64,000 nt of DNA from Bacteroidia bacterium (lineage in GTDB: Bacteria; Bacteroidota; Bacteroidia; CAIKAF01): positions 17,777 through 81,776 of the forward strand of contig JACVCJ010000014.1 of the NCBI GenBank assembly GCA_016742095.1, written 5' to 3'. A program made the position numbers and the translations under genes. The notes below the pieces were generated by a model, which did no database searches, had not been told where the DNA came from, and saw only the letters and a program-made list of their open reading frames with translations. Numbering within the stretch: the first letter of the stretch is position 1; every line of letters starts with the position of its first letter. Shown here piece after piece: positions 9,901 through 26,526 of this stretch.

Positions 9901-11823
9901 ATGATCATGTCAGAAAACGTAAACAACGAAGCGCTGGAACCCAGGGAGCCCGTTCTGCCTGCCACCGTGCAGAAAGAGAGCGAAGAGGATAGCATTGAAG
10001 TATCTTTCGGTCACGAAGACGAACATGCTCTGATCCAGTCGCCGGTAGCCGGTCACGAAGAGGAAGAAGAGCATGCCGATGAGGAATTTCATGCCGAAAA
10101 ACTGGATCTCCGGGAACTTTTCGAGGCGTTCAAACGCATGATCTCCGATGGTTCTATCCTGAGATCCCGCAAGAATTTCAAGAATATCCGCAGCCGTTTC
10201 CAGGAACTCATCCACGACCGTGAACACGCCGCGCTGGAACAATTCCTGGCCGAAGGCGGTGAAAAAGACGATTTCGGCTTCCAGCTTTCCCGCGAGGAAA
10301 AAGAATTTAAAGAAAAACTCCGCGATACCGAAGAGCACTTCAGCGATGTAAAACGCCGCCGTGAGCAGGAACAGACGGAGAACTACCTCAAAAAGCAGGA
10401 CGTGATCCAGGAACTGAAGAACCTGATCAGCAATGAGCAGAACATCGGCCTGGTGCAGGATAAATTCCGCGAACTGCAGGACCGCTGGAACCACATCGGT
10501 CCGGTACCGCAGAGCAAGGCCGACGATATCTGGAAGACCTACCGTTTTCATGTAGATAACTATTACCAGGCGCTGAGCATACACCGCGACCTGTTCAAGG
10601 TGGAACTGCAGAAGAACCTGGCCGAAAAAGAACGTATTGTAAAAGGCGTGGAAAGCCTGCTGAAACTGGAGTCGATCAAAAAATCGCTCGAGTTCCTGCA
10701 ATCGTACCATAAACAATGGCGCGAGATCGGGCCTATTCCCAAAGCCAAGAGCGAAGACCTGTGGCAGCGTTTCAAACAGGCTACCGAGGCCGTGTACAAA
10801 CGCCGCGACGAGTTTTTTGATAAGCTGAACGAACAGCGCAAACAGAACCTCGAGTCTAAAACACAGCTGGTACACGAACTGGAAGAATGGGCCGCAAAGG
10901 AATTCCCGTCCATGAAAGATTTTAACGAGGCACAGAAAGCCCTGGACAAGATCGAGCAGCAGTGGAAAGCCATCGGCCGTGTGCCCGAAAATGTGAGTGA
11001 CGCCATCTGGGAACGTTTCCGGGAGGCCCGCCGCCGCCTGGTGGGTAAACGTCAGTCGCTCTGGAGCGAACTCAAGAACAACTGGAACGCCAACCTCGAA
11101 AAGAAAATGAAACTGGTGGAAAAGGCCGAGGAACTGGCTCAGAGCACCGACTGGAAAAATACCCCGGCCCGCTTTAAATCCTTACAGGAAGACTGGAAAA
11201 AGATCGGCGCCGTACAGCGTGAGAAAAGCGACGAGGTATGGAACCGTTTCCGTGCCGCTGCCGACGCTTTCTTCCATGCCAGGGAAGAACACCAGAAAAA
11301 TGTGCCGAACCAGGAACTGGAGAACCTGGAGAAGAAAAAGGCCGTTCTGGAACAGATAAAGGCTTACGAGCATACCGAAGACCTGCAGGAAAGTTTCCGT
11401 GCCATGGAAGAGTTCCGCAGTGCCTATAAAGCTATCGGTTTTGTGCCTTTCAAGGAGAAACAGCATATCGAAAAAGCGTTCGAGGACGCTTCTAACGAGT
11501 TCTTTGCGAAGATCAACGTAGACCCGGCCGAAAAGGAAAAGATCATCTACAAGGGAATGATCGATACCATGCTGGCCTCGGCAAACCCGTACGATGCCCT
11601 GAAGAACGAACGTACCCAGCTGCGTACCCGCATTGAAAAACTGCGGCAGGAAGTATCCCAGCTCGAAAGCAATCTTACCTTCTTTGGCAATAGCAAAAAT
11701 GCCGATGCCCTTAAAAAACCGTACGAAGAAAAGATCGAAAGGAACAAGCAGATGCTCAGCGACCTGGACATGAGACTGATCCAGGTACGTGTCGCGATCC
11801 GGCCGTTCGAAGAGAAAAAATAA
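9901..11823 (+). CDS. DUF349 repeat protein
   Basis: The 640-aa product has an acidic N-terminus and about 8 repeats of ~75 aa, each containing W(K/R/N)xIG(P/R/A)(V/I)P (WNHIGPVP, WREIGPIP, WKAIGRVP, WKKIGAVQ, YKAIGFVP), which is diagnostic for DUF349. Confidence 0.75.
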   Translation: MIMSENVNNEALEPREPVLPATVQKESEEDSIEVSFGHEDEHALIQSPVAGHEEEEEHADEEFHAEKLDLRELFEAFKRMISDGSILRSRKNFKNIRSRFQELIHDREHAALEQFLAEGGEKDDFGFQLSREEKEFKEKLRDTEEHFSDVKRRREQEQTENYLKKQDVIQELKNLISNEQNIGLVQDKFRELQDRWNHIGPVPQSKADDIWKTYRFHVDNYYQALSIHRDLFKVELQKNLAEKERIVKGVESLLKLESIKKSLEFLQSYHKQWREIGPIPKAKSEDLWQRFKQATEAVYKRRDEFFDKLNEQRKQNLESKTQLVHELEEWAAKEFPSMKDFNEAQKALDKIEQQWKAIGRVPENVSDAIWERFREARRRLVGKRQSLWSELKNNWNANLEKKMKLVEKAEELAQSTDWKNTPARFKSLQEDWKKIGAVQREKSDEVWNRFRAAADAFFHAREEHQKNVPNQELENLEKKKAVLEQIKAYEHTEDLQESFRAMEEFRSAYKAIGFVPFKEKQHIEKAFEDASNEFFAKINVDPAEKEKIIYKGMIDTMLASANPYDALKNERTQLRTRIEKLRQEVSQLESNLTFFGNSKNADALKKPYEEKIERNKQMLSDLDMRLIQVRVAIRPFEEKK

Positions 11824-11828
11824 AAGGA

Positions 11829-11855
11829 AGCCTCGCAGAAGCGGGGCTTTTTTTA
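11829..11855 (+). terminator. rho-independent terminator after the DUF349 gene
   Basis: GCCTCGCagaaGCGGGGC forms a 7-bp stem with one G-U pair, followed by TTTTTTT. Confidence 0.6.
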
Positions 11856-11861
11856 TGACTT

Positions 11862-12458
11862 TCAGGAGCGGGCAAAGCGGAGCAGGGGTACGATATCGCC
11901 GGCATCAGCAGCCCTCAGGGCATGCAGGTACGCACTGCGGGCAAGACCCTGCCGGGCCAGGTTTCCGCGACCCCAGCTGAACACCGGCTGTCCCCGGAGT
12001 TTGCTGGTGATAATATCGGCCAGCAGGCGGCTATGCCTGCCGTTCCCGTTGCAGAAACAATGTATGCTCACCAGGCGGTGCTTAAAACGCAGTGCAGCCT
12101 CGTCCGGACTGTATACCTGCATCTGCTGCCAGTACAGCGCATCGTCGAGCAGGCATTTCAGTGCGCCGGGTATCTGCCAGCGGTTTATGCCCAGGTTCTT
12201 TTCGCTCTGCCTGAATTCCCCGGCCCAGTTCCACACGTTGCCGAACATCTGCTGATGCACACGGCGTATAAAGGCTTCACTGAATACCTCTGCCGGCCGG
12301 AAAGAACGTCTCAGGGACCAGAGCATGGCCTCTTCGATATTCTGTTGTTCAAACTCGTCCAGTTCGGCATGCGTTTGTATGCCCGGGATCCGTAAACCCT
12401 CTGCCTCGCTTTCGTCCAGCGGCGTTTGTCCCGGAAGATATACAAAGCTTAATCCCAC
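11862..12458 (-). CDS. Fic/Doc-family protein of the 'mobile mystery protein B' type
   Basis: The Fic motif HxFx(D/E)GNGRxxR is present as HCFCNGNGRHSRLL. At ~198 aa, and with an HTH partner gene immediately upstream overlapping by 10 bp, it matches the mobile-mystery A/B pair architecture. Confidence 0.8.
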   Translation of the reverse strand: MGLSFVYLPGQTPLDESEAEGLRIPGIQTHAELDEFEQQNIEEAMLWSLRRSFRPAEVFSEAFIRRVHQQMFGNVWNWAGEFRQSEKNLGINRWQIPGALKCLLDDALYWQQMQVYSPDEAALRFKHRLVSIHCFCNGNGRHSRLLADIITSKLRGQPVFSWGRGNLARQGLARSAYLHALRAADAGDIVPLLRFARS

Positions 12459-12922
12459 AGTATTTTAGGCATTTCGTTCTTGAGCAGGACCGTACGTTCT
12501 TCAATGGCTTTGCGGATGCGTTGTTCGGAGTTTTCCTGGCCTTCGAGCAGCATGGTATGGGAGCTGCGGAGTACAATTTCAGTGGCCAGCTCACGGGCCT
12601 TTTGTTCAATGAGGGCATCGAGGGAGCCGCCGTTAGGTACAAAACCATACACCAGCTGCATATCCAGGGCCCGGGCCGTTTCGCGCAGGGAACGCAGGGT
12701 AATGCTGCCTTCCTGTTCGCGTTTTTCAATGTCCTGCACGCTCTGTTTACTGATGGAGAGTTTGCGCCCCAGTTGTTGCATAGACATGCCCAGGGCCGAA
12801 CGTATGGTACGTACCCAGCCCGAAGCCGGTACCGCCTGCTGCTGTACGGAGGCGAAGGACACCATTTTGTTGTTTAACTGCTGTATCTGTAAGTTTTTGC
12901 GCGACATAATTCCTGTATTCAC
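12449..12922 (-). CDS. HTH (XRE-like) DNA-binding protein of the 'mobile mystery protein A' type
   Basis: The start is a GTG at 12922 (MNTGIMS..), with an alternative ATG at 12907. The HTH segment is SALGMSMQQLGRKLSISKQSVQDIEKRE. At 157 aa it overlaps the Fic gene in an operon-like way. Confidence 0.7.
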   Translation of the reverse strand: MNTGIMSRKNLQIQQLNNKMVSFASVQQQAVPASGWVRTIRSALGMSMQQLGRKLSISKQSVQDIEKREQEGSITLRSLRETARALDMQLVYGFVPNGGSLDALIEQKARELATEIVLRSSHTMLLEGQENSEQRIRKAIEERTVLLKNEMPKILWD

Positions 12923-12943
12923 TCCTCAAAAGTACAACTATTC

Positions 12944-12970
12944 TATGACATTTGAAAATAATTTGTCATA
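12944..12970. promoter_or_regulatory. inverted repeat TATGACA-N13-TGTCATA upstream of the HTH gene; candidate operator
   Basis: It is read directly. The same GTCATA/TATGAC half-site also forms the arms of the hairpin at 12992-13019. Confidence 0.35.
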
Positions 12971-12980
12971 TAATAACTTT

Positions 12981-13019
12981 ACTTTTAATATAAAAAGTCA
13001 TACTATACTATGACTTTTT
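12981..13019 (-). terminator. hairpin downstream of the PorU-like gene, a probable terminator on the minus strand
   Basis: AAAAAGTCATActatacTATGACTTTTT forms an 11-bp stem and is followed on the minus strand by a U/A-rich tract. Confidence 0.4.
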
Positions 13020-13075: not shown

Positions 13076-16000
13076 TTAGCGCATCAGGTACATTTTTCCG
13101 AATCCTTTCTTGAAGAAGGAGTCGGCCTCGGTAGCACGACGGTCGATATTTTCGCCGTTGATCTCTGTATAAGCGCGGTACAGGTAAACGCCGGAGGCCA
13201 GTTTGTTGCCGAACTCGTCGGTGCCGTCCCAGGCGTAATCGGTAATGTTGTTGCCGATGTGAATGTTGCCGAGCTCTTCCATCATGATCTCGCGTACGAT
13301 CACCCCGTTGATATTAAAGATCTGTATCTTGAAGAAAGTGGGCAGTTCGCTGCCGGTGAGTGTAAATACAAAGCGGGTAGAGGTGCTGAAGGGGTTGGGG
13401 TAATTGAGGATCTGGGTAATACTCGATTTGTTCACAATGTTGAAGCGGATCCTGTAATCGAAGGTGCCGTCGCCGTTGCCGCTGGCATTATTGGTCTTAT
13501 CGCGGGCGCGCAGCATCAGTTCGTACTGGCCGTCGGCCATGGAGAAATCCGGGCGGAATTCGAGCCGGGCATTGTTCTTGGAATTGGTGGCCGGGTAAAA
13601 ACTCACGTCGGAACCGCTCAGCGGAACGGGCACGATATTCGAACTGCCCGGGTAACGCAGGAAAACCTCGAAGCTCGACGTATCGTTCAGCAGCAGTATG
13701 GGGTTTTCGTCCTTCAGCTGGATCAGGATCACCGGTTTGGCCGATACAATGTCGCCGTCCATGATCCGTACTCCGTCAAAGGTAACGTCCAGCAGGGGAT
13801 TGATCTTGTCTTTATCAGTATAGAAAGGCCGGTCGGCCAGGTTATTGAAATGGTACTGCTCCGTAAAACGGTCGGGCCGGTCCAGCGGGTTGGCCTCGGT
13901 CCAGAGGACGTTCAGGCCCGGGTAATTCATGTTTTCGATCGTAAAAGTGTCCAGCAGGAACTGTCCCACAGTAAGGCCGTTGTACTTTTTGTAGAAATTG
14001 GTAACGGCATTGTTGCTGTTCACGATAAAGTGTTTCACAATAACGGAATCGGTATTGTAATCGCCGATGTTCTCCACGGGCATCACCAGTCGCAGCGTCT
14101 GGCCCTGTGGCAGGGTATCGGCCGCAAAGGAAAAGCCGGAACGTGCCGGGTTCAGCGATATTTCGGGCACGCCTTCGTACAGCACGTGCCAGCGCCGCAG
14201 TTGTGCCGGTGTGCGGATGCTGTCGTCCCGGGTAAAGAAACGCAGTTTCAGGTAAGGGTACTGGCTGGCATTGATGGTGTTGCCCAGGTTGAACACTTCG
14301 CCCGGAACAGGTTGCAGCGCACTGATGAGCGTGGTTTCCACGCCGCCGTTCACCCCGATGATGTCTACGGAAACGCTGTCGAAACTGGGAATTTCGGTAC
14401 TCTGCTGAAAATAGCTCATGTAATCCCAGTTTTTGGCCGGACCGATCAGCGGACTTTCGATATTCCCGAAGATCCAGTCATTTTCCAGGTCCTGGGTAAG
14501 CGTAATGGTAGCGGAAGGACTGTTCCCCACCACTTCGGCGGTAGTGGCCGGGTATCCCTTGCGGGTAAAGAAAATATAGGGCAGGTTTTGTCCGCCGGCG
14601 GCCAGCAGTTGTATGGAATCGGCGCCGAGATTGATAAAAGCATTGAGCTGATCGGGCGTAAACTGGCTGAAGTTGGTGCTCCACATGGTATAGGCCAGTA
14701 TGTAATGCCCGTTGGGAACGGTGTTGTTCAGCAGGTTCTTGAGTTGTTCACGGGAGTTATTATCGCCCTGCAGGTAGATGAAATAAGCTTCCTGGCGGTC
14801 GCGGCAGGGTAGCTGGCACTGGTTGTACTGTCCCAGGTTATAACCGCCGGTACCGGTACAGTTCGTTTTCCAGGGTTCCAGTGTAAGAGGATCGATAATG
14901 GCCACATAGATACCCGGAATGGTATTACAGGCACCATATTCCATCAGTATGCCGTCCATATCGTATTTACACTGTTCGCTCTGTGCCACGCTTACATTAC
15001 CTATGGTAACGCAGCGCAGCTGTTTGCGGTTCTCATTGAATTCGAACAGGCGCTGCGGTTCATTGTAATCGATATACGTATATTTATCGTTCCTGAACTG
15101 CGGAAAATCGGCCTGGCCCCAGCCTCGCTTGTTCACAATGTACTGGAACGAAGAATAGCGCCATTTTCCAAACGTAAGGTTCCCGGTGGTATCCACGCCT
15201 ACGCGCCAGTAAAACACGGTACTGTCGGGCATGTTCAGCTGCGGGTTCCATTGCATTACCCCGCCGGTCTGACTGATGAGCGTGTCTTTTTTCCAGCTGC
15301 TGGTAAAATAGGCATTGGTGTCTATTTCCATGCGGTAATTACGCAGGGGTGCAAAAAGATTCCCCGTTACGGCCTTTATTTTTGTGTTGGGCAGGGGCAC
15401 CACGGCAAATTCCTGCGGGTAAACGGGTATCACTTCGGCAGAGGCGATATTTACCGTTTTTACCACTTTGTTGTTGAACTCGTTCAGTTCTTCCACGAAG
15501 TTGTTCGGGTCCAGCGTAATGGTAAAGATATTGCTGCCCTGGCCGTTCACCGGATCGGTGGCGAACGTAAGCCGGAGCGTATCCGAAAACATCAGGGGCG
15601 GCAGTTTGTAGGCATAAATATCGTTGGGTTTGCCCTGTTTGGGATAATCGCGTATTACCTCGATACGCAGGGAGTCGTTCATGGCGCGGCCGTAGTTGGT
15701 TATGGCTATGGTGATATGAAAAGAATCCTGGTCGGTCGTGATCACCGCCGGACTTACCACCACGCTCTGGTCCGTGATCATGGGGTCGGGCCTGGTATAG
15801 GACATGATCTTCAGCGCCGGGTCGCCGTGGATGGAGAACTCCAGGTAGTTCAGTATGTCGAAAAAGCCGCCGTTCTGTATATACAGCTCATTTACGGACG
15901 CAGTAAGACATTCCCCGATACTTTTGGTATACATATCGCGGGAAACGTTTCGGTACCAGGTACGCGTAATGTTGAATACGGGGTTCTGCAGGCTGTATCC

Positions 16001-18100
16001 CACGGCAGAAAGGAAGGCCACGGAACCTTTTTCGGGTTCCAGCACGAAGCGTTCGCTGATGGTGGGCGTAGCCTGGAACAGGTCGCCCGAGAGGCAGGAG
16101 TTGGCCACGATCACCGGGTAACGCCCGCTGTTGTTGTAATCGGCTGGTTCTTCAATATTGATATCGAAGCCGCTGCCCGAGGCATGTCCGAAGAAGGTCA
16201 TCAGCGCTACGCCGTTATTGATGATCCCCTTGAGGCTGTCGGCCACGGTCTGTGATACCGGAGCATTGGACGATTTTCCGAAGAACAGCGCACGGCCGGC
16301 CATCGCCGAATCCTGCCAGTGCGATTTATAGGTGTCCAGGTACGATTTGAACAGGTTCTGTTCTGCCTGGCTCGATCCGCCCGCAAAATGCAGGGCCTTT
16401 TTCATCCATTCGGCAGGGTGGTTCTGTTCGTTCTGCTGTACCTTCAGCAGGTAATTGCTTACATCGGCCGGGGTACGTGCCGCCAGGCGCCCGATGGGGG
16501 TGTGATGCCTGGGCGGACTGGTATTTTCGTATACATAGTTATTGTCCGTAGGCGGATAGCCCATGGCCGGTATATAGTTCTGCGCGGCTACGGCGGGATT
16601 CAGCCGCACCTGATCGGGGAAATACGATTTGCCGATAATGAATATGGCTTTCGGTTTTATGTTCCACTGCTGCCGGGCATAGTTCAGGAAGCGGTAAATA
16701 CCCAGTGGGTGTCCGTTCATGCCGAACCCGAACTGGTCGTACAGCTCGCGCACGTCCAGAACCAGCGGATTGTAACCGCTCAGGTTGCGGTATGCGGCGT
16801 ATTGCAGGGCCTCGTTCCAGAAAAAGGATGAGGTGATCACCAGGTAATCGCGGTTGGAATACATGGCGCTGAGATCCCGGAATTTGCCCGGCAGCGCCCC
16901 GGCCGAATTCACCGGCTGTATATTGCTCACCTTGATGGTGGCGCTGTCCGACGTAAGAATACATTGCTTGTTGCCGCTGCCGCCGTTGGGTACCACCACC
17001 TGCCAGTTGCCGGAAACGTTCTGCACCTGTATACGTTTTCCGTTGCTTACATCGTACAGGTACACCTGGGAACCGAGGGCGTTAAAATTGCTGATGGACA
17101 GCGTGTATTTGGCCTGCGCCGCATTATTGGGAACATACAGTATGTGCGAACTGCGGTTGCTCAGGTTATAGGTCTGCGGAAGCAGCGCGCGCACATAGCT
17201 GAGGGCATTGCGTGTGGACGGACTGGAAGGTGCCGGGGCAAAACCTACCGAATATACATTGGCGGCGGCCGCTACCGAAGAAGCAGAGGCGTTGAGGTTG
17301 TAGCGGTTAAAGCTGAAATTGTACAGGTTGGAATCGATCTGGGCCGAACCGAACGTAACCTTGTGGTTATGGTCAAAGTTCATCAGGTTGGACGAAGGGT
17401 TCGACGCGCCTGCGGCCCACACGCTCAGGCTGGCCTGGGGCCCCGCAGTGTACATGGTGTTCTTCAGGTTGGCAAAATCGCCTGTCCAGCCCTGGTTAAT
17501 GGTTTGTGCATTGGTGTAGATGGTGGCATAGCCTTCGCCGCTCTGGTAGCGGGCGTCTTTCTGAAAACTGCTGTAAAAAGCGCCCTCGTTGTATGTGGAA
17601 CGGTAGCCCTGTTCCACCAGCGCCCAGTAAAAAGGAGAGGTGTTCCAGGCGCTGAAATTATTATCGAGCTCCGTTACGAAACGCAGCCCGAAACTGGTGC
17701 CGGTCGTAAGAAAATAAGAGGCCGTATCGGTGTACAGGTTCACTTTTTTGTTGCCCTGCCATCCCGGCTGAAAATACAGTACGGAGTCGGGCGTACCGTC
17801 GTTGCTGATGCCGAAAAAGTCGATATGATCGCCGGGATCGAACTGTCCGTCGCCCTGTCCGGCTATGTAAACGGTCTGTTGCTGTCCGCGGAAATACAGC
17901 TGAAAATACCTCGGGTCCGAACTGTTCACCGGGAAACCCGAAGCCGCGAGGGCCGCGTAGGTAATGCGGTGCATGCCTGTTTCGGTCACCTGGATCTTGT
18001 AGTAGCTCTGGTCGTACCGGATCCATTCGTTACCATATACCTGGCTGCGTGCCGCAAGAGGAAGCAGAAAAAAAAGTATATAGATCAGGTGCTTTTTCAT
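13076..18100 (-). CDS. porU: PorU-like T9SS C25-family (gingipain-like) peptidase / sortase carrying a C-terminal T9SS sorting domain
   Basis: The 1674-aa product has a signal peptide, then GNEWIRYDQSYYKIQV.., the characteristic PorU N-terminal region. A C25-peptidase-like region follows (..YLVITSSFFWNEALQYAAYRNLSGYNPLVLDVRELYDQFG..IFIIGKSY..). The last ~80 aa (..ILNYPNPFSTSTRFVFTL..GVYLYRAYTEING..) look like a T9SS C-terminal domain. A PorV-like gene is immediately adjacent. Confidence 0.6.
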   Translation of the reverse strand: MKKHLIYILFFLLPLAARSQVYGNEWIRYDQSYYKIQVTETGMHRITYAALAASGFPVNSSDPRYFQLYFRGQQQTVYIAGQGDGQFDPGDHIDFFGISNDGTPDSVLYFQPGWQGNKKVNLYTDTASYFLTTGTSFGLRFVTELDNNFSAWNTSPFYWALVEQGYRSTYNEGAFYSSFQKDARYQSGEGYATIYTNAQTINQGWTGDFANLKNTMYTAGPQASLSVWAAGASNPSSNLMNFDHNHKVTFGSAQIDSNLYNFSFNRYNLNASASSVAAAANVYSVGFAPAPSSPSTRNALSYVRALLPQTYNLSNRSSHILYVPNNAAQAKYTLSISNFNALGSQVYLYDVSNGKRIQVQNVSGNWQVVVPNGGSGNKQCILTSDSATIKVSNIQPVNSAGALPGKFRDLSAMYSNRDYLVITSSFFWNEALQYAAYRNLSGYNPLVLDVRELYDQFGFGMNGHPLGIYRFLNYARQQWNIKPKAIFIIGKSYFPDQVRLNPAVAAQNYIPAMGYPPTDNNYVYENTSPPRHHTPIGRLAARTPADVSNYLLKVQQNEQNHPAEWMKKALHFAGGSSQAEQNLFKSYLDTYKSHWQDSAMAGRALFFGKSSNAPVSQTVADSLKGIINNGVALMTFFGHASGSGFDINIEEPADYNNSGRYPVIVANSCLSGDLFQATPTISERFVLEPEKGSVAFLSAVGYSLQNPVFNITRTWYRNVSRDMYTKSIGECLTASVNELYIQNGGFFDILNYLEFSIHGDPALKIMSYTRPDPMITDQSVVVSPAVITTDQDSFHITIAITNYGRAMNDSLRIEVIRDYPKQGKPNDIYAYKLPPLMFSDTLRLTFATDPVNGQGSNIFTITLDPNNFVEELNEFNNKVVKTVNIASAEVIPVYPQEFAVVPLPNTKIKAVTGNLFAPLRNYRMEIDTNAYFTSSWKKDTLISQTGGVMQWNPQLNMPDSTVFYWRVGVDTTGNLTFGKWRYSSFQYIVNKRGWGQADFPQFRNDKYTYIDYNEPQRLFEFNENRKQLRCVTIGNVSVAQSEQCKYDMDGILMEYGACNTIPGIYVAIIDPLTLEPWKTNCTGTGGYNLGQYNQCQLPCRDRQEAYFIYLQGDNNSREQLKNLLNNTVPNGHYILAYTMWSTNFSQFTPDQLNAFINLGADSIQLLAAGGQNLPYIFFTRKGYPATTAEVVGNSPSATITLTQDLENDWIFGNIESPLIGPAKNWDYMSYFQQSTEIPSFDSVSVDIIGVNGGVETTLISALQPVPGEVFNLGNTINASQYPYLKLRFFTRDDSIRTPAQLRRWHVLYEGVPEISLNPARSGFSFAADTLPQGQTLRLVMPVENIGDYNTDSVIVKHFIVNSNNAVTNFYKKYNGLTVGQFLLDTFTIENMNYPGLNVLWTEANPLDRPDRFTEQYHFNNLADRPFYTDKDKINPLLDVTFDGVRIMDGDIVSAKPVILIQLKDENPILLLNDTSSFEVFLRYPGSSNIVPVPLSGSDVSFYPATNSKNNARLEFRPDFSMADGQYELMLRARDKTNNASGNGDGTFDYRIRFNIVNKSSITQILNYPNPFSTSTRFVFTLTGSELPTFFKIQIFNINGVIVREIMMEELGNIHIGNNITDYAWDGTDEFGNKLASGVYLYRAYTEINGENIDRRATEADSFFKKGFGKMYLMR

Positions 18101-19200
18101 TCGCTTTTCTTTTTGCCGGATTTAAGATTGAGTCCCACGCGCAACGAGAATACGTGCGAAAACAAAAAGGTACTCTGGTTGCCGAGGGAGGCCAGGGCGT
18201 AATCCACGTAAATGGTCTTTACCCGGAAACCGGCCCCGATATTGGGCTTCACCAGCCATATATCCTTGCTGCCGTCGCCTTTGCTGCGCTGGAACTGGCC
18301 TACGCCGCCCCGGATGAACACAATGTCTTTGTACCCGAATTCCACGGCGATACGCGGGTCCATACTGAGCGGTTTCCCCGCTACCAGTACGTTACGCTTG
18401 CCGTCGGTGGTAATGATCCAGTCGAGCGAGGGTCGTACAAAATACCGCTGTTTTTTATCGATCCACTGCTGGTACGAAGCTCCCAGCACGATCTGCGGCA
18501 GCGCCAGTTCCGAGGATTTACGCAGTATCTCGTTGCCGGTAAGGGCAAAGGTCTTTTCAAACGTTTCGGTGTTGTAGCTGAAGTTGGTTATCGTAGTGGT
18601 AATATCGCGCAGCAGCAGTCCTGCCCGCAGGTTCCGGTACTGGTACTGTACGCCCAGGTCCACGCCAAAGCCCCAGCCTTTACCAAATTCCCCGATGTTG
18701 CGGTGCAGCACCTTCATACTGCCGCCCACGCTGAGGCCTTTTACAGGCATCTGCCGGGCAAAGGATACAAAGAATGCATAATCGGCCACGGAAAACGCGG
18801 TGATACGGTCGTAACGGATACGTCCGTCGCTGTCGATCAGTTCCAGGGTGTTCGGGATATTGTCCACCCCGCTGCGGATCACCCCGAAACCCAGTCCGTT
18901 CTTTTCTCCGGCCTTGATGCCGATGGCCCCGAAGTCATATTTTACGATGCCGCCGAAGTGTTCATTGTGCATCAGGGAAACGTCCAGCGTACTTTTGAGC
19001 CGGGTAAGGCCCGCCGGGTTCCAGTAAATGGAAGAAGCGTCCTCGGATATGGACGTATAGGCATTGCTCATGCCCAGTGCGCGTGCATTCACCCCAATAT
19101 CGAGATAGGCATTGGTGTAGGTGTAGGTCTGGGCGCGACAAGCCGCCGCCATAAAAAAAGCGGCAAGCACAGGGTATATGTTAATGCAGATGAATTTCAC
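18097..19200 (-). CDS. porV: PorV-like (LptO) T9SS outer-membrane beta-barrel protein, FadL-like family
   Basis: The 367-aa product has a signal peptide and a conserved ..NARALGMSNAYTSISEDASSIYWNPAGL.. segment, and ends in aromatic-rich beta-strands. It overlaps the start of the PorU-like gene by 4 bp. Confidence 0.55.
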   Translation of the reverse strand: MKFICINIYPVLAAFFMAAACRAQTYTYTNAYLDIGVNARALGMSNAYTSISEDASSIYWNPAGLTRLKSTLDVSLMHNEHFGGIVKYDFGAIGIKAGEKNGLGFGVIRSGVDNIPNTLELIDSDGRIRYDRITAFSVADYAFFVSFARQMPVKGLSVGGSMKVLHRNIGEFGKGWGFGVDLGVQYQYRNLRAGLLLRDITTTITNFSYNTETFEKTFALTGNEILRKSSELALPQIVLGASYQQWIDKKQRYFVRPSLDWIITTDGKRNVLVAGKPLSMDPRIAVEFGYKDIVFIRGGVGQFQRSKGDGSKDIWLVKPNIGAGFRVKTIYVDYALASLGNQSTFLFSHVFSLRVGLNLKSGKKKSE

Positions 19201-24825: not shown

Positions 24826-26526
24826 ATGAAGATGTCAGCACGCATATATACAGCCGCTTTTACCTTACTGTTCCTTGCCGCAAACGCCTTTTCGCAGACT
24901 CCGTCAGACAGTGTGACCATTACCGGGGGCTATGTGCCCGAACTGCGCGCCGTGGAAAAAATCGCCACACGTCCCGAAGTGGTGGACACTTTCAGCAAAA
25001 AACTGAAACCGACCTACGATATACGGCCCCGCATCGTGGATTTTTATTACATTCCCGATACGCTGAGCGCCGCCCGTATGAAGACCGAACCGCTGAAAAA
25101 ACTGCGTCGTTTCTATGTGAAGCTCGGCTTCGGCAACTACCTTTCGCCCCTGGCCGAAGTGCGTATGAACAGTCTGCGTAGCAAGCAGTTCCAGTACGAC
25201 GTATACTATAAGTACTTTGCCAGCTACGGTAAAAAACTGTTCTTCGGCAAGAACAAACCGCAGTACGGTTACCCGGGTATCCAGGACCACGGCGGAGGCG
25301 CCAATTTTTCGTATATGCTTAAAACGCATACCCTGGGCGTGCATGCCGGTTACCAGAGCAACCAGACCCATTTTTACGGCTACGACGCTTCACAGCCCGG
25401 CCTGGACACCATCGATAAAAAGGATATCCGCCAGAACTACCAGAAGATCGACATAGCCCTCAGCTTTAAGAACAACCGCCTCTGGGACAGCACCAGACTG
25501 ATCACCGAGAACTATATACGCTATTATTATCTTTTCGACCGCTACAAGGCCTCGGAGCACGGACTGGATATCCGCAGCGACTGGCGTAAAATGGTGGCCG
25601 GTTTCTTTGTGGGCGGAGCCCTGGGCGTGGAATACTATTCCTACAGGGCCGATACCGCCACGGGACGCTCTTTCCGGGGCGGACTGGTACACATAGACCC
25701 GTACATACGCGCCGGCAAGCGCATCTGGGACGTACAGGCCGGTCTGAATATCGCCTTTGGCTATGATACGCTCACCAAATTTTACATTGCACCCAATATA
25801 CGGGCCCGGGTAAATGCCTGGAAAGAACACGTGGTGGTATATGCCGACCTTACCGGGGGCGCCTACCGCAATACCTTTGACGCCCTGCGCCGTGGCAACC
25901 CGTTCATCGTGAGCCATGTGCCCGTACGCAATGCCTATAAGCCCATTGATCTGCTGGCCGGTATCCGCGGTAAATTCGCCAAAAACTTTTACTACAACCT
26001 GGGCGGCGGTTACGAAAAGGTCTTCAACAAGGCCTTTTATATGACCGATACCACCCGTGCCCTGGGCAATTACTTTACCGTGGCCTATGACGACCTGGGT
26101 ACCGGCAAGTTGTTTGCCGAACTGGGCTACGAACGCGGCGAAGTGCTGCGCGTGGGCATGCGTGTGAACGCCTACTTCCTGGACCCGGGCAATTTTGCAA
26201 AAGCCTGGTATATGCCCCAGTACGATGCTACCCTGAGTGCCATGTACAACCTGCGCGACAAGTTTATCTTTAAGGTGGACCTGTTTTACCTCGGCGATCA
26301 GTTTGCTCCGAAGTATACGCTCGATCCCAATACCATGGTGCGCAACCTGGAAGTGGTGCGCCTGCGTAACGCCATCGACCTGAACATTGGTGCGGAATAC
26401 CGTTACAATAAACTGCTCAGTTTCTTTATACAGGGGAACAACCTGGCCGGTTTCCGCTACAACCGCTGGCTGCAGTACCCCACACAGGGCGTAAGTGTAC
26501 AGGGCGGCATAACGCTCAGCTTTTAA
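24826..26526 (+). CDS. predicted outer-membrane beta-barrel protein, co-transcribed with the TPR protein
   Basis: The start lies 3 nt after the TPR stop. The 566-aa product has a signal peptide, alternating aromatic/hydrophilic beta-strand patterns, and a C-terminal ..GGITLSF ending in Phe, as outer-membrane-protein signatures do. Confidence 0.55.
   Translation: MKMSARIYTAAFTLLFLAANAFSQTPSDSVTITGGYVPELRAVEKIATRPEVVDTFSKKLKPTYDIRPRIVDFYYIPDTLSAARMKTEPLKKLRRFYVKLGFGNYLSPLAEVRMNSLRSKQFQYDVYYKYFASYGKKLFFGKNKPQYGYPGIQDHGGGANFSYMLKTHTLGVHAGYQSNQTHFYGYDASQPGLDTIDKKDIRQNYQKIDIALSFKNNRLWDSTRLITENYIRYYYLFDRYKASEHGLDIRSDWRKMVAGFFVGGALGVEYYSYRADTATGRSFRGGLVHIDPYIRAGKRIWDVQAGLNIAFGYDTLTKFYIAPNIRARVNAWKEHVVVYADLTGGAYRNTFDALRRGNPFIVSHVPVRNAYKPIDLLAGIRGKFAKNFYYNLGGGYEKVFNKAFYMTDTTRALGNYFTVAYDDLGTGKLFAELGYERGEVLRVGMRVNAYFLDPGNFAKAWYMPQYDATLSAMYNLRDKFIFKVDLFYLGDQFAPKYTLDPNTMVRNLEVVRLRNAIDLNIGAEYRYNKLLSFFIQGNNLAGFRYNRWLQYPTQGVSVQGGITLSF

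Follow-up and report, generated by a model that had tools for sequence, protein, structure and literature searches.

An HTH gene and a Fic-fold gene of the mobile mystery A/B family in Bacteroidia as a candidate toxin–antitoxin operon

The gene pair and its products

This analysis concerns a pair of overlapping genes on the minus strand of a 64,000-nt stretch of Bacteroidia DNA (contig JACVCJ010000014.1; the whole of this stretch is referred to as the window), which encode mobile mystery proteins A and B (hereafter A and B) and which are considered here as a candidate Fic toxin–antitoxin operon. B occupies 11862–12458, and the open reading frame upstream of it is open as far as a GTG codon at 12922. 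A first-pass annotation had described the two as a Fic and helix-turn-helix (HTH) module of the mobile mystery B/A type, in which a small XRE-like HTH gene lies upstream of the Fic gene and overlaps it by 10 bp. The genes and the features that define them are listed below.

11862–12458, minus strand: gene B, mobile mystery protein B, 198 amino acids with a Fic fold; start GTG at 12458, stop TGA at 11862–11864; assigned by TIGR02613 and Pfam Fic
12449–12907, minus strand: gene A, mobile mystery protein A, 152 amino acids; start ATG at 12907, stop TAA at 12449–12451; assigned by TIGR02612, HTH_3 and homologue length
12668–12817, minus strand: Xre/HipB-type HTH of A, residues 31–80; assigned by Pfam HTH_3 (residues 38–90), predicted helices and Foldseek; translation verified
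12449–12458, minus strand: overlap of the A stop with the B start, 10 nt (GTGGGATTAA); likely site of translational coupling

Both the family assignment and the overlapping HTH partner were confirmed. In profile-HMM searches each protein scored above the cut-off of its own model, B with 237.3 bits against TIGR02613 (cut-off 124.4, E 1.2e-70, residues 12–197 on profile positions 2–186 of 186) and A with 148.8 bits against TIGR02612 (cut-off 122.6, E 1e-43, profile positions 2–149 of 150). NCBI proteins 100% identical to B and to A carry the names mobile mystery protein B and mobile mystery protein A, and each originates from a Bacteroidia metagenome-assembled genome. The match of B to the Fic/DOC family of Pfam (PF02661) is likewise significant (42.9 bits, gathering threshold 24, E 9e-11), and nearly all of the B homologues listed are 198 amino acids long. 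The first-pass annotation had begun the A frame at 12922; this start was replaced by ATG 12907, as the close homologues of A are all 152 amino acids long and start at the equivalent of that codon (MSRKNLQ...). Compared with the family as a whole nothing essential differs at this locus, where the pair is adjacent, full-length and arranged with A first; the local peculiarities are the GTG start of B and a chromosomal site with host-like G+C content at third codon positions (GC3) and no mobile genes nearby. The locus is an ordinary, already annotated member of a widespread uncharacterised family, which spans at least 589 species, and it is unsurprising to a specialist.

The AlphaFold2 (AF2) model of A has a mean predicted local distance difference test score (pLDDT) of 91 and predicts an N-terminal helix (residues 3–22), the HTH (helices 31–38, 43–50, 54–66 and 71–80), an extended or short beta segment and a helical hairpin formed by residues 96–116 and 127–145. 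Only the HTH part of this model was matched by Foldseek, with HipB, HigA2/3 and the 434 repressor as the best matches. At the level of sequence A falls below the cut-off of the HipB-like model TIGR03070; the match is weak and A is not a member of that family.

For B, the sequence matches in the PDB were exclusively Fic proteins, among them FICD (~1e-8 to 1e-10) and NmFic (~1e-7), and all of the PDB matches listed by Foldseek for the B model were Fic proteins as well, nearly all with a probability of 0.99–1.00. The top template modelling (TM) scores among these listed matches were those of VbhT and BepC, at 0.55 each. A profile built from residues 1–80 of B retrieved class I toxins first (VbhT, Bep proteins and EcFicT), with an E-value of 0.007.

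Other proteins with A-type segments were also seen. Four of them (P0241 of 1366 amino acids, P0242 of 1083 amino acids, P0296 and P0312) carry 5–14 tandem mobile mystery A HTH segments per polypeptide, each corresponding to query residues ~10–97, an odd multi-HTH arrangement. In a further protein, P0259 (256 amino acids), a complete A is extended by a stretch that looks like a minimal nucleotidyltransferase (MNT; …DIDILVEF…), which suggests from its sequence that A-type HTH partners may also pair with MNT-type modules.

Gene overlap, promoter and operator-like palindromes

The comparison was extended to a set of 87 loci, made up of seven close relatives (L001–L007) and 80 species representatives of at least 589 stretches encoding a relative of B. 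Loci were searched for with an alignment of B. Conservation was read from 55 Bacteroidota homologues for B and, for A, from 117 diverse representatives of 35–64% identity drawn from 1.8 billion cluster representatives. Operator-like sites were counted in 76 upstream regions of 200 nt and element neighbourhoods in 82 genome loci.

A was found directly upstream of B, with the same 10-nt overlap (consensus ATGGGATTAG), in 87 of 87 loci. The start codon of B is ATG in 78 loci and GTG in eight, seven of these GTG loci belonging to the clade of the window itself (L001–L007) and one lying elsewhere. The overlap is 4 nt in a copy of the pair on a Ti plasmid (L093:3300–4564, Agrobacterium fabrum pTi_CFBP6549), as against 10 nt in all of the Bacteroidota loci. 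This plasmid copy stands beside a DUF3991/toprim gene, on the opposite strand, which overlaps the 3' end of B.

Upstream of A, the following sites were assigned within the window.

12927–12934, minus strand: putative -7 box TACTTTTG of the form TAnnTTTG, into which the right half of O3 runs
12932–12949, minus strand: putative operator O3, GTCA-tagaatagtt-GTAC, with one mismatch (in the right half) to GT[CA]A-N10-T[TG]AC
12965–12982, minus strand: putative operator O2, GTAA-agttattata-TGAC, 33 nt from O3
12997–13014, minus strand: putative operator O1, GTCA-tagtatagta-TGAC, a near-perfect palindrome with A/T-run flanks, 32 nt from O2

TAnnTTTG is the consensus of the Bacteroidetes -7 promoter box; 19 nt upstream of the putative -7 box of A there is a weak candidate for the -33 element (TTC). 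Palindromes of 18 bp of the form GT[C/A]A-N10-T[T/G]AC, with an A/T-rich, TATA-like centre, occur upstream of A in nearly all loci, two to four phased copies being present per region. In total 202 operator-like sites were found in the 76 regions, compared with 0.008 per 200 nt elsewhere in the same loci and a total of 1.1 in shuffled sequences. Of 127 intervals between consecutive palindromes, 98 measure 33 bp and another 17 measure 32 bp, a spacing of three helical turns, and a palindrome is fused to TAnnTTTG in 43 (strict count) to 62 (relaxed count) of the 76 loci. The Ti-plasmid copy has other upstream palindromes, of the TGATnATCA type, as would be expected if each lineage of A recognises its own operator.

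O1, judged by its sequence, could also act as a weak PorU2 terminator. That it is nothing but such a terminator is possible, but its half-sites are those of the family operator. They are retained in L001 and L005, where the spacer and the T run are altered, and they persist in L005 even with the T run lost.

This architecture suggests an autorepressed, translationally coupled type II toxin–antitoxin operon, in which A would bind the palindromes and repress the promoter. It has a parallel in HipBA, with which it shares an HTH whose fold is nearest to that of HipB and several inverted repeats with long spacers at the promoter, which in A/B are putative operators. The two differ in that the toxin of HipBA is the HipA kinase and not a Fic protein, and in that the operator sequence and the 33-bp phasing are particular to the A/B family. 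Twenty-two pairs of Fic/Doc with Xre were included by Makarova et al. (2009) among candidate toxin–antitoxin systems.

The active-site loop of B and a candidate inhibitory glutamate in A

Two short segments, one in each protein, are considered here.

12027–12062, minus strand: Fic active-site loop of B, H133-C-F-C-N137-G-N-G-R141-H-S-R144 (HCFCNGNGRHSR); translation verified
12536–12556, minus strand: candidate in-trans inhibitory motif of A, T118-M-L-L-E122-G-Q, fitting (S/T)xxxE(G/N); translation verified

The active-site motif had been described in the first-pass annotation as an intact HxFx[D/E]GNGRxxR. This description had to be corrected, since the fifth position of the motif in B is Asn137, in the place of the canonical D/E; the motif is therefore HxFxNGNGRxxR, non-canonical though conserved, and all of the remaining signature residues are there. 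H133, F135, N137, G138, N139, G140, R141 and R144 are invariant in the 55 B homologues. The B copy of the Ti plasmid, which is 50% identical, reads HPFPNGNGRHSR and so also has Asn at the acidic position, with His, Phe, GNGR and both Arg retained. In the Fic signature the acidic residue contributes to the binding of a metal ion that links the alpha- and beta-phosphates (PMC3667792; PMC4454073), and HxxxNGNGRxxR is not included in the five motif groups of Khater and Mohanty (PMC4454073).

As the catalytic His, the Phe, the GNGR loop and both Arg are invariant, the site of B looks, from its sequence, to be selected for catalysis. With Asn in the place of the D/E metal ligand, its donor, its metal dependence or its chemistry may differ from those of classic AMPylation. 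The earlier prediction of an AMPylation or phosphocholination-type activity is accordingly weaker than it was stated to be.

The same substitution could be taken further, B being a catalytically dead Fic-fold protein and the pair acting solely as a DNA-binding regulatory complex. In favour of this are the replacement of the metal-binding acid by Asn137 and the possible inactivity that Khater and Mohanty raise for variants with a replaced acidic residue (PMC4454073). The invariance of the other catalytic residues, which extends to the 50%-identical Ti-plasmid copy, argues instead for selection on catalysis, and in our view the carbonyl of an Asn may still ligate Mg. We therefore regard a dead B as very improbable.

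The pair was also compared with Doc/Phd of P1, in which the toxin is a Fic-fold kinase. As in A/B, a Fic-fold protein is encoded behind its partner, there the antitoxin and here the candidate antitoxin, and the acidic position is likewise Asn in some variants of Doc (PMC4454073). The NGR of the Fic signature is NKR in Doc, and its last Arg is missing, whereas B has GNGR and Arg144 and does not carry the Doc-type kinase motif HxFx(D/N)(A/G)NKR; Phd, unlike A, is not an Xre HTH protein.

The first-pass annotation had proposed a search for an inhibitory motif in B itself or in its HTH partner. In B no (S/T)xxxE(G/N) pattern could be read from the sequence, the sole E-G (E20–G21) having a Glu at -4, and B terminates 12 residues past the point aligned with NmFic residue 149, so that it is without the C-terminal inhibitory helix of class III. 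A conserved ExEGL segment is present near the N-terminus, in which E18 is invariant and G21 and L22 are conserved in at least 90% of the 55 sequences. This segment opens the question of whether B may be a self-inhibited or condition-activated regulatory enzyme, with A as its transcription factor only, any inhibition acting in cis via ExEGL and the motif of A serving dimerisation or some other contact. Besides its conservation, the position of the segment is suggestive, as it lies in a predicted helix (16–21) ahead of helix 30–49, where the inhibitory helix of class II proteins is placed, and the alignment of the class II protein CdFic to the profile of B sets in at position 21. The departure of the A motif from the strict (S/T)xxxE(G/N) pattern in most members of the family is a further point for it. 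Several close homologues, however, have S, H, D or A where B has E20, the Glu beside the Gly, which is unexpected for an inhibitory glutamate, and E18 has neither S/T at -4 nor G/N at +1. The N-terminal profile of B is closest to class I toxins, and the strict order with A first and the fixed overlap are typical of antitoxin–toxin pairs. A cis inhibitory Glu in ExEGL was consequently disfavoured, on account of the variable E20 and of an E18 without motif context, and was retained as a rival that we rate as improbable.

A motif matching the inhibitory pattern, TMLLEG, was found on the HTH partner. It belongs to the sole strongly conserved cluster in the C-terminal half of A, [T/S/N]-M-x-L-E-[D/N/G]-Q, in which M, L and E are each conserved in 107, Q in 105 and T/S at -4 in 83 of the 117 sequences; over the full length of A, 14 columns are near-invariant, and M119, L121 and E122 are three of them. 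In the AF2 model the motif sits at the tip of the C-terminal hairpin, in a loop of lower confidence (117–126) between helices 96–116 and 127–145, and this lower pLDDT is what might be expected of a segment that becomes ordered upon binding. The PDB entries of VbhA (...ALASQRLEGLEP..., ASQRLEG) and of EcFicA/YhfG (...FQASRRLEGVEM..., ASRRLEG) contain a similar sequence, and an E-to-G mutant has been deposited for each. The pattern [ST]-x-x-L-E-G is therefore common to A, VbhA and FicA, a likeness that is clear but short.

Among characterised systems, the nearest in mechanism are the class I pairs VbhT/VbhA of Bartonella and FicT/FicA (EcFic/YhfG) of E. coli. Like these, the pair consists of a small Fic protein of ~200 amino acids and a partner that is encoded directly upstream and contains [ST]-x-x-L-E-G. 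It is unlike them in that VbhA and FicA are helical peptides of ~55–62 amino acids, whereas A has 152 amino acids, an N-terminal HTH and no detectable homology to either, and in that the class I motif is HPFx(D/E)GNGRxxR.

An apparent natural fusion of A and B, P0370 (315 amino acids), was also observed, in which A residues 1–~125 are joined to B from ~residue 35. The A motif is degenerate in this protein (TAELSD), and a new S-I-T-T-E-G stands directly before the FEQINIE helix of B. The fusion could be real or an artefact of assembly or frameshift.

Taking these data together, we consider it more probable than not that A/B is a class-I-like Fic toxin–antitoxin operon with HTH-mediated autorepression. 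The reasons include the fixed overlap with A first, the promoter palindromes, the HipB/HigA-like HTH and the motif of A, and the same four features support the earlier suggestion of a Fic toxin laid out with an HTH antitoxin or regulator. In such an operon, dimers of A would bind the palindromes via the HipB-like HTH and repress their own operon, and translation of B would be coupled to that of A, so that B would never be made without A. The C-terminal hairpin of A would dock on B, and Glu122 would occupy the place of the nucleotide gamma-phosphate and keep B inactive, acting like Glu24 of VbhA and Glu28 of FicA, in line with the inhibitory-motif mechanism of class I Fic antitoxins (PMC3667792). 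We infer this plugging of the B active site in trans by Glu122 to be the most likely mechanism. If A were degraded, no longer expressed or lost together with the element, B would be set free, would modify an essential target with a group derived from a nucleotide and would so arrest growth; by analogy with FicT this target may be GyrB/ParE, and by analogy with Doc and SoFic it may be EF-Tu.

Several observations weigh against this toxin–antitoxin reading. Of the 117 sequences, 47 have D, 22 have N and 16 have G behind the motif Glu, others have another residue, and the Ti-plasmid copy has Ala, so that a strict fit to the published (S/T)xxxE(G/N) is found in a minority of the A family only. The C-terminal profile of A, aligned to VbhA and FicA with hhalign, gave a probability of 0.4% and no homology, and profile searches of the PDB with full-length A and with residues 94–152 returned no antitoxin match for the C-terminal domain; homology of this domain to known Fic antitoxins was rejected on these grounds, and the proposed link between A and those antitoxins is confined to a motif of six residues. 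With regard to B, the AF2 model is moderate (pLDDT 73) and its TM scores to Fic structures are just 0.45–0.55, which we attribute to that pLDDT; the Asn in the place of the Mg-binding D/E could mean a low or different activity; and the ExEGL segment, though disfavoured, keeps some small chance of being a cis regulator. The literature searched mentions the family in a handful of papers and in passing only, in those consulted as a table entry, and contained no experimental characterisation, in agreement with the statement of the first-pass annotation that neither protein has a defined function.

A more far-reaching version of the toxin–antitoxin reading is that the family represents a fourth mode of Fic control. 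Here an operator-binding HTH would be fused to an unrelated, convergently evolved glutamate plug, coupling repression of the promoter to obstruction of the active site, and the Asn site would use a chemistry or donor other than Mg-ATP AMPylation, in an abortive-infection or addiction device carried by more than 500 Bacteroidota species and by Ti and Coxiella plasmids. We hold this to be speculative and rather improbable.

Neighbourhood, mobility and possible role of the family

The pair is flanked by a DUF349 gene on the plus strand (9901–11823), which is convergent with B at its 3' end, and on the other side by a C25-peptidase gene (13076–18100) and a PorV-like gene (18097–19200), both on the minus strand. 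The first-pass annotation had correctly noted the DUF349 neighbour; its naming of the other two as porU and porV does not stand, since they are the paralogues PorU2 (13076–18100; NF052324, 675 bits) and PorV2 (18097–19200; NF052325, 415 bits) and score far too low for the models of canonical PorU and PorV. Between B and DUF349 lies one further feature.

~11826–11855, strand not assigned: candidate bidirectional terminator, a G+C-rich hairpin with A/T-run flanks between the convergent genes B and DUF349

A terminator-like site on the minus strand (11842–11830) falls inside this hairpin region, and from its sequence the hairpin is probably a bidirectional terminator. A second Fic-like gene at 25712–25984 (minus strand), suggested by a tblastn match of 24% identity over 92 amino acids (E 0.016), was dismissed as spurious, as it is a shadow frame of a plus-strand open reading frame of 566 amino acids (24826–26526).

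The absence of a visible integrase or transposase, pointed out in the first-pass annotation, was borne out in the syntenic relative L001, in which no such mobile-element genes were seen in the 10 kb to the left or to the right. Positions 1–30000 are free of tRNA genes, and the GC3 values of A (0.63) and B (0.67) lie among those of the neighbours (0.62–0.70), with no GC anomaly at the locus. Relatives in which A is 91–96% identical retain the pair at the same site. In the lineage of L088 and L089, which has the same flanking gene order and a DUF349 protein 86% identical to that of the window, only 269 bp separate DUF349 from PorU2, and remnants of the cassette can still be recognised there. L088:10057–10145, corresponding to 11841–11929, contains the last ~23 codons of B in frame (YLHALRAADAGDMALLSGFARS*), with 72 of 89 nt identical, and L088:10206–10232, corresponding to 12927–12953, contains a remnant of the O3 box with 21 of 27 nt identical. 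The stub of B and the O3 remnant imply a deletion of ~1 kb from a shared ancestral cassette, and not an empty insertion site. Recent horizontal transfer into the site was therefore rejected: GC and GC3 are unremarkable, neither a tRNA gene nor an integrase was seen in the stretches named, and the comparison with L088 points to a deletion in that lineage and not to an insertion in the window. The A/B pair is, on this comparison of sequences, ancestral at the locus and dispensable, a long-resident chromosomal copy. The question of variable presence, which had been raised with the first-pass annotation, is likewise answered by this lineage, which has lost the pair, so that it is not universal at the locus.

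Signs of mobility were found for the family beyond the window. B homologues of ~50% identity occur on 262 plasmids, including those of Agrobacterium (100), Rhizobium (51), Coxiella (19) and Vibrio (18). In 13 of 82 loci the cassette lies directly behind a gene for a DUF3987/BT4734-N protein, mostly preceded by HTH_17 (excisionase-like) and tyrosine-integrase genes, and among the genes annotated downstream in those integrative elements are those of type III restriction-modification, of an Argonaute with a Piwi domain and of RhuM. A mobile or accessory status, as had been proposed, therefore applies to the family, while at the locus itself there are no mobile genes and GC3 is host-like. In five loci (L019 and four other genome loci) the cassette or its island adjoins mnmE, where integration may have recurred in Bacteroidota.

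These neighbourhoods bear on an alternative that the first-pass annotation had offered, namely a regulator and effector of the phage-defence type. In this case A would both repress and sense, and infection would free B, which would shut down the cell before the phage matures. Such anti-phage abortive infection is compatible with the toxin–antitoxin reading, the main difference being the function under selection. What the earlier suggestion can draw on is an unvalidated PADLOC candidate match and, in some elements, the restriction-modification and Argonaute neighbours. B matches the PADLOC model PDC-S04 (71 bits, 2.6e-20) and, weakly, SoFic (27 bits, 6e-7), both being models without curated cut-offs, and A weakly matches models for CapH and for HTH proteins that are applied to defence loci. 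TIGR02613 has also been counted in the defence and toxin–antitoxin cargo of Tn7-like transposons, and the 13 loci behind integrative-element genes point in the same direction. PDC-S04 is, however, an unvalidated candidate for which no defence was found in one native-host test, and PDC-S04 and SoFic are single-gene systems, SoFic being of class II with an inhibitory helix in cis, whereas A/B has an obligatory HTH partner. At the locus there are no defence neighbours, just PorU2/PorV2 and cell-envelope genes, and across the loci the neighbourhoods consist mainly of unrelated housekeeping genes (351 of 524 neighbour open reading frames are singletons, and 150 neighbours are spread over 156 Pfam families). 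No B homologue was present in 50,697 phage records, a result on which a phage origin was rejected and which gives no sign of use on the side of the phage. Abortive infection as the selected function is considered rather unlikely.

For the family, the value of the probable toxin–antitoxin operon described here lies in the comparative details, as the 10-nt overlap, the putative 18-bp operators in 33-bp phase, the Glu at the hairpin tip and the invariant Asn make a 'mystery' family concretely testable. Should the variant with Asn turn out to take another donor or to act on another target, it would widen what is known of Fic chemistry; if not, the A/B pairs would represent one further subfamily of Fic toxin–antitoxin systems.

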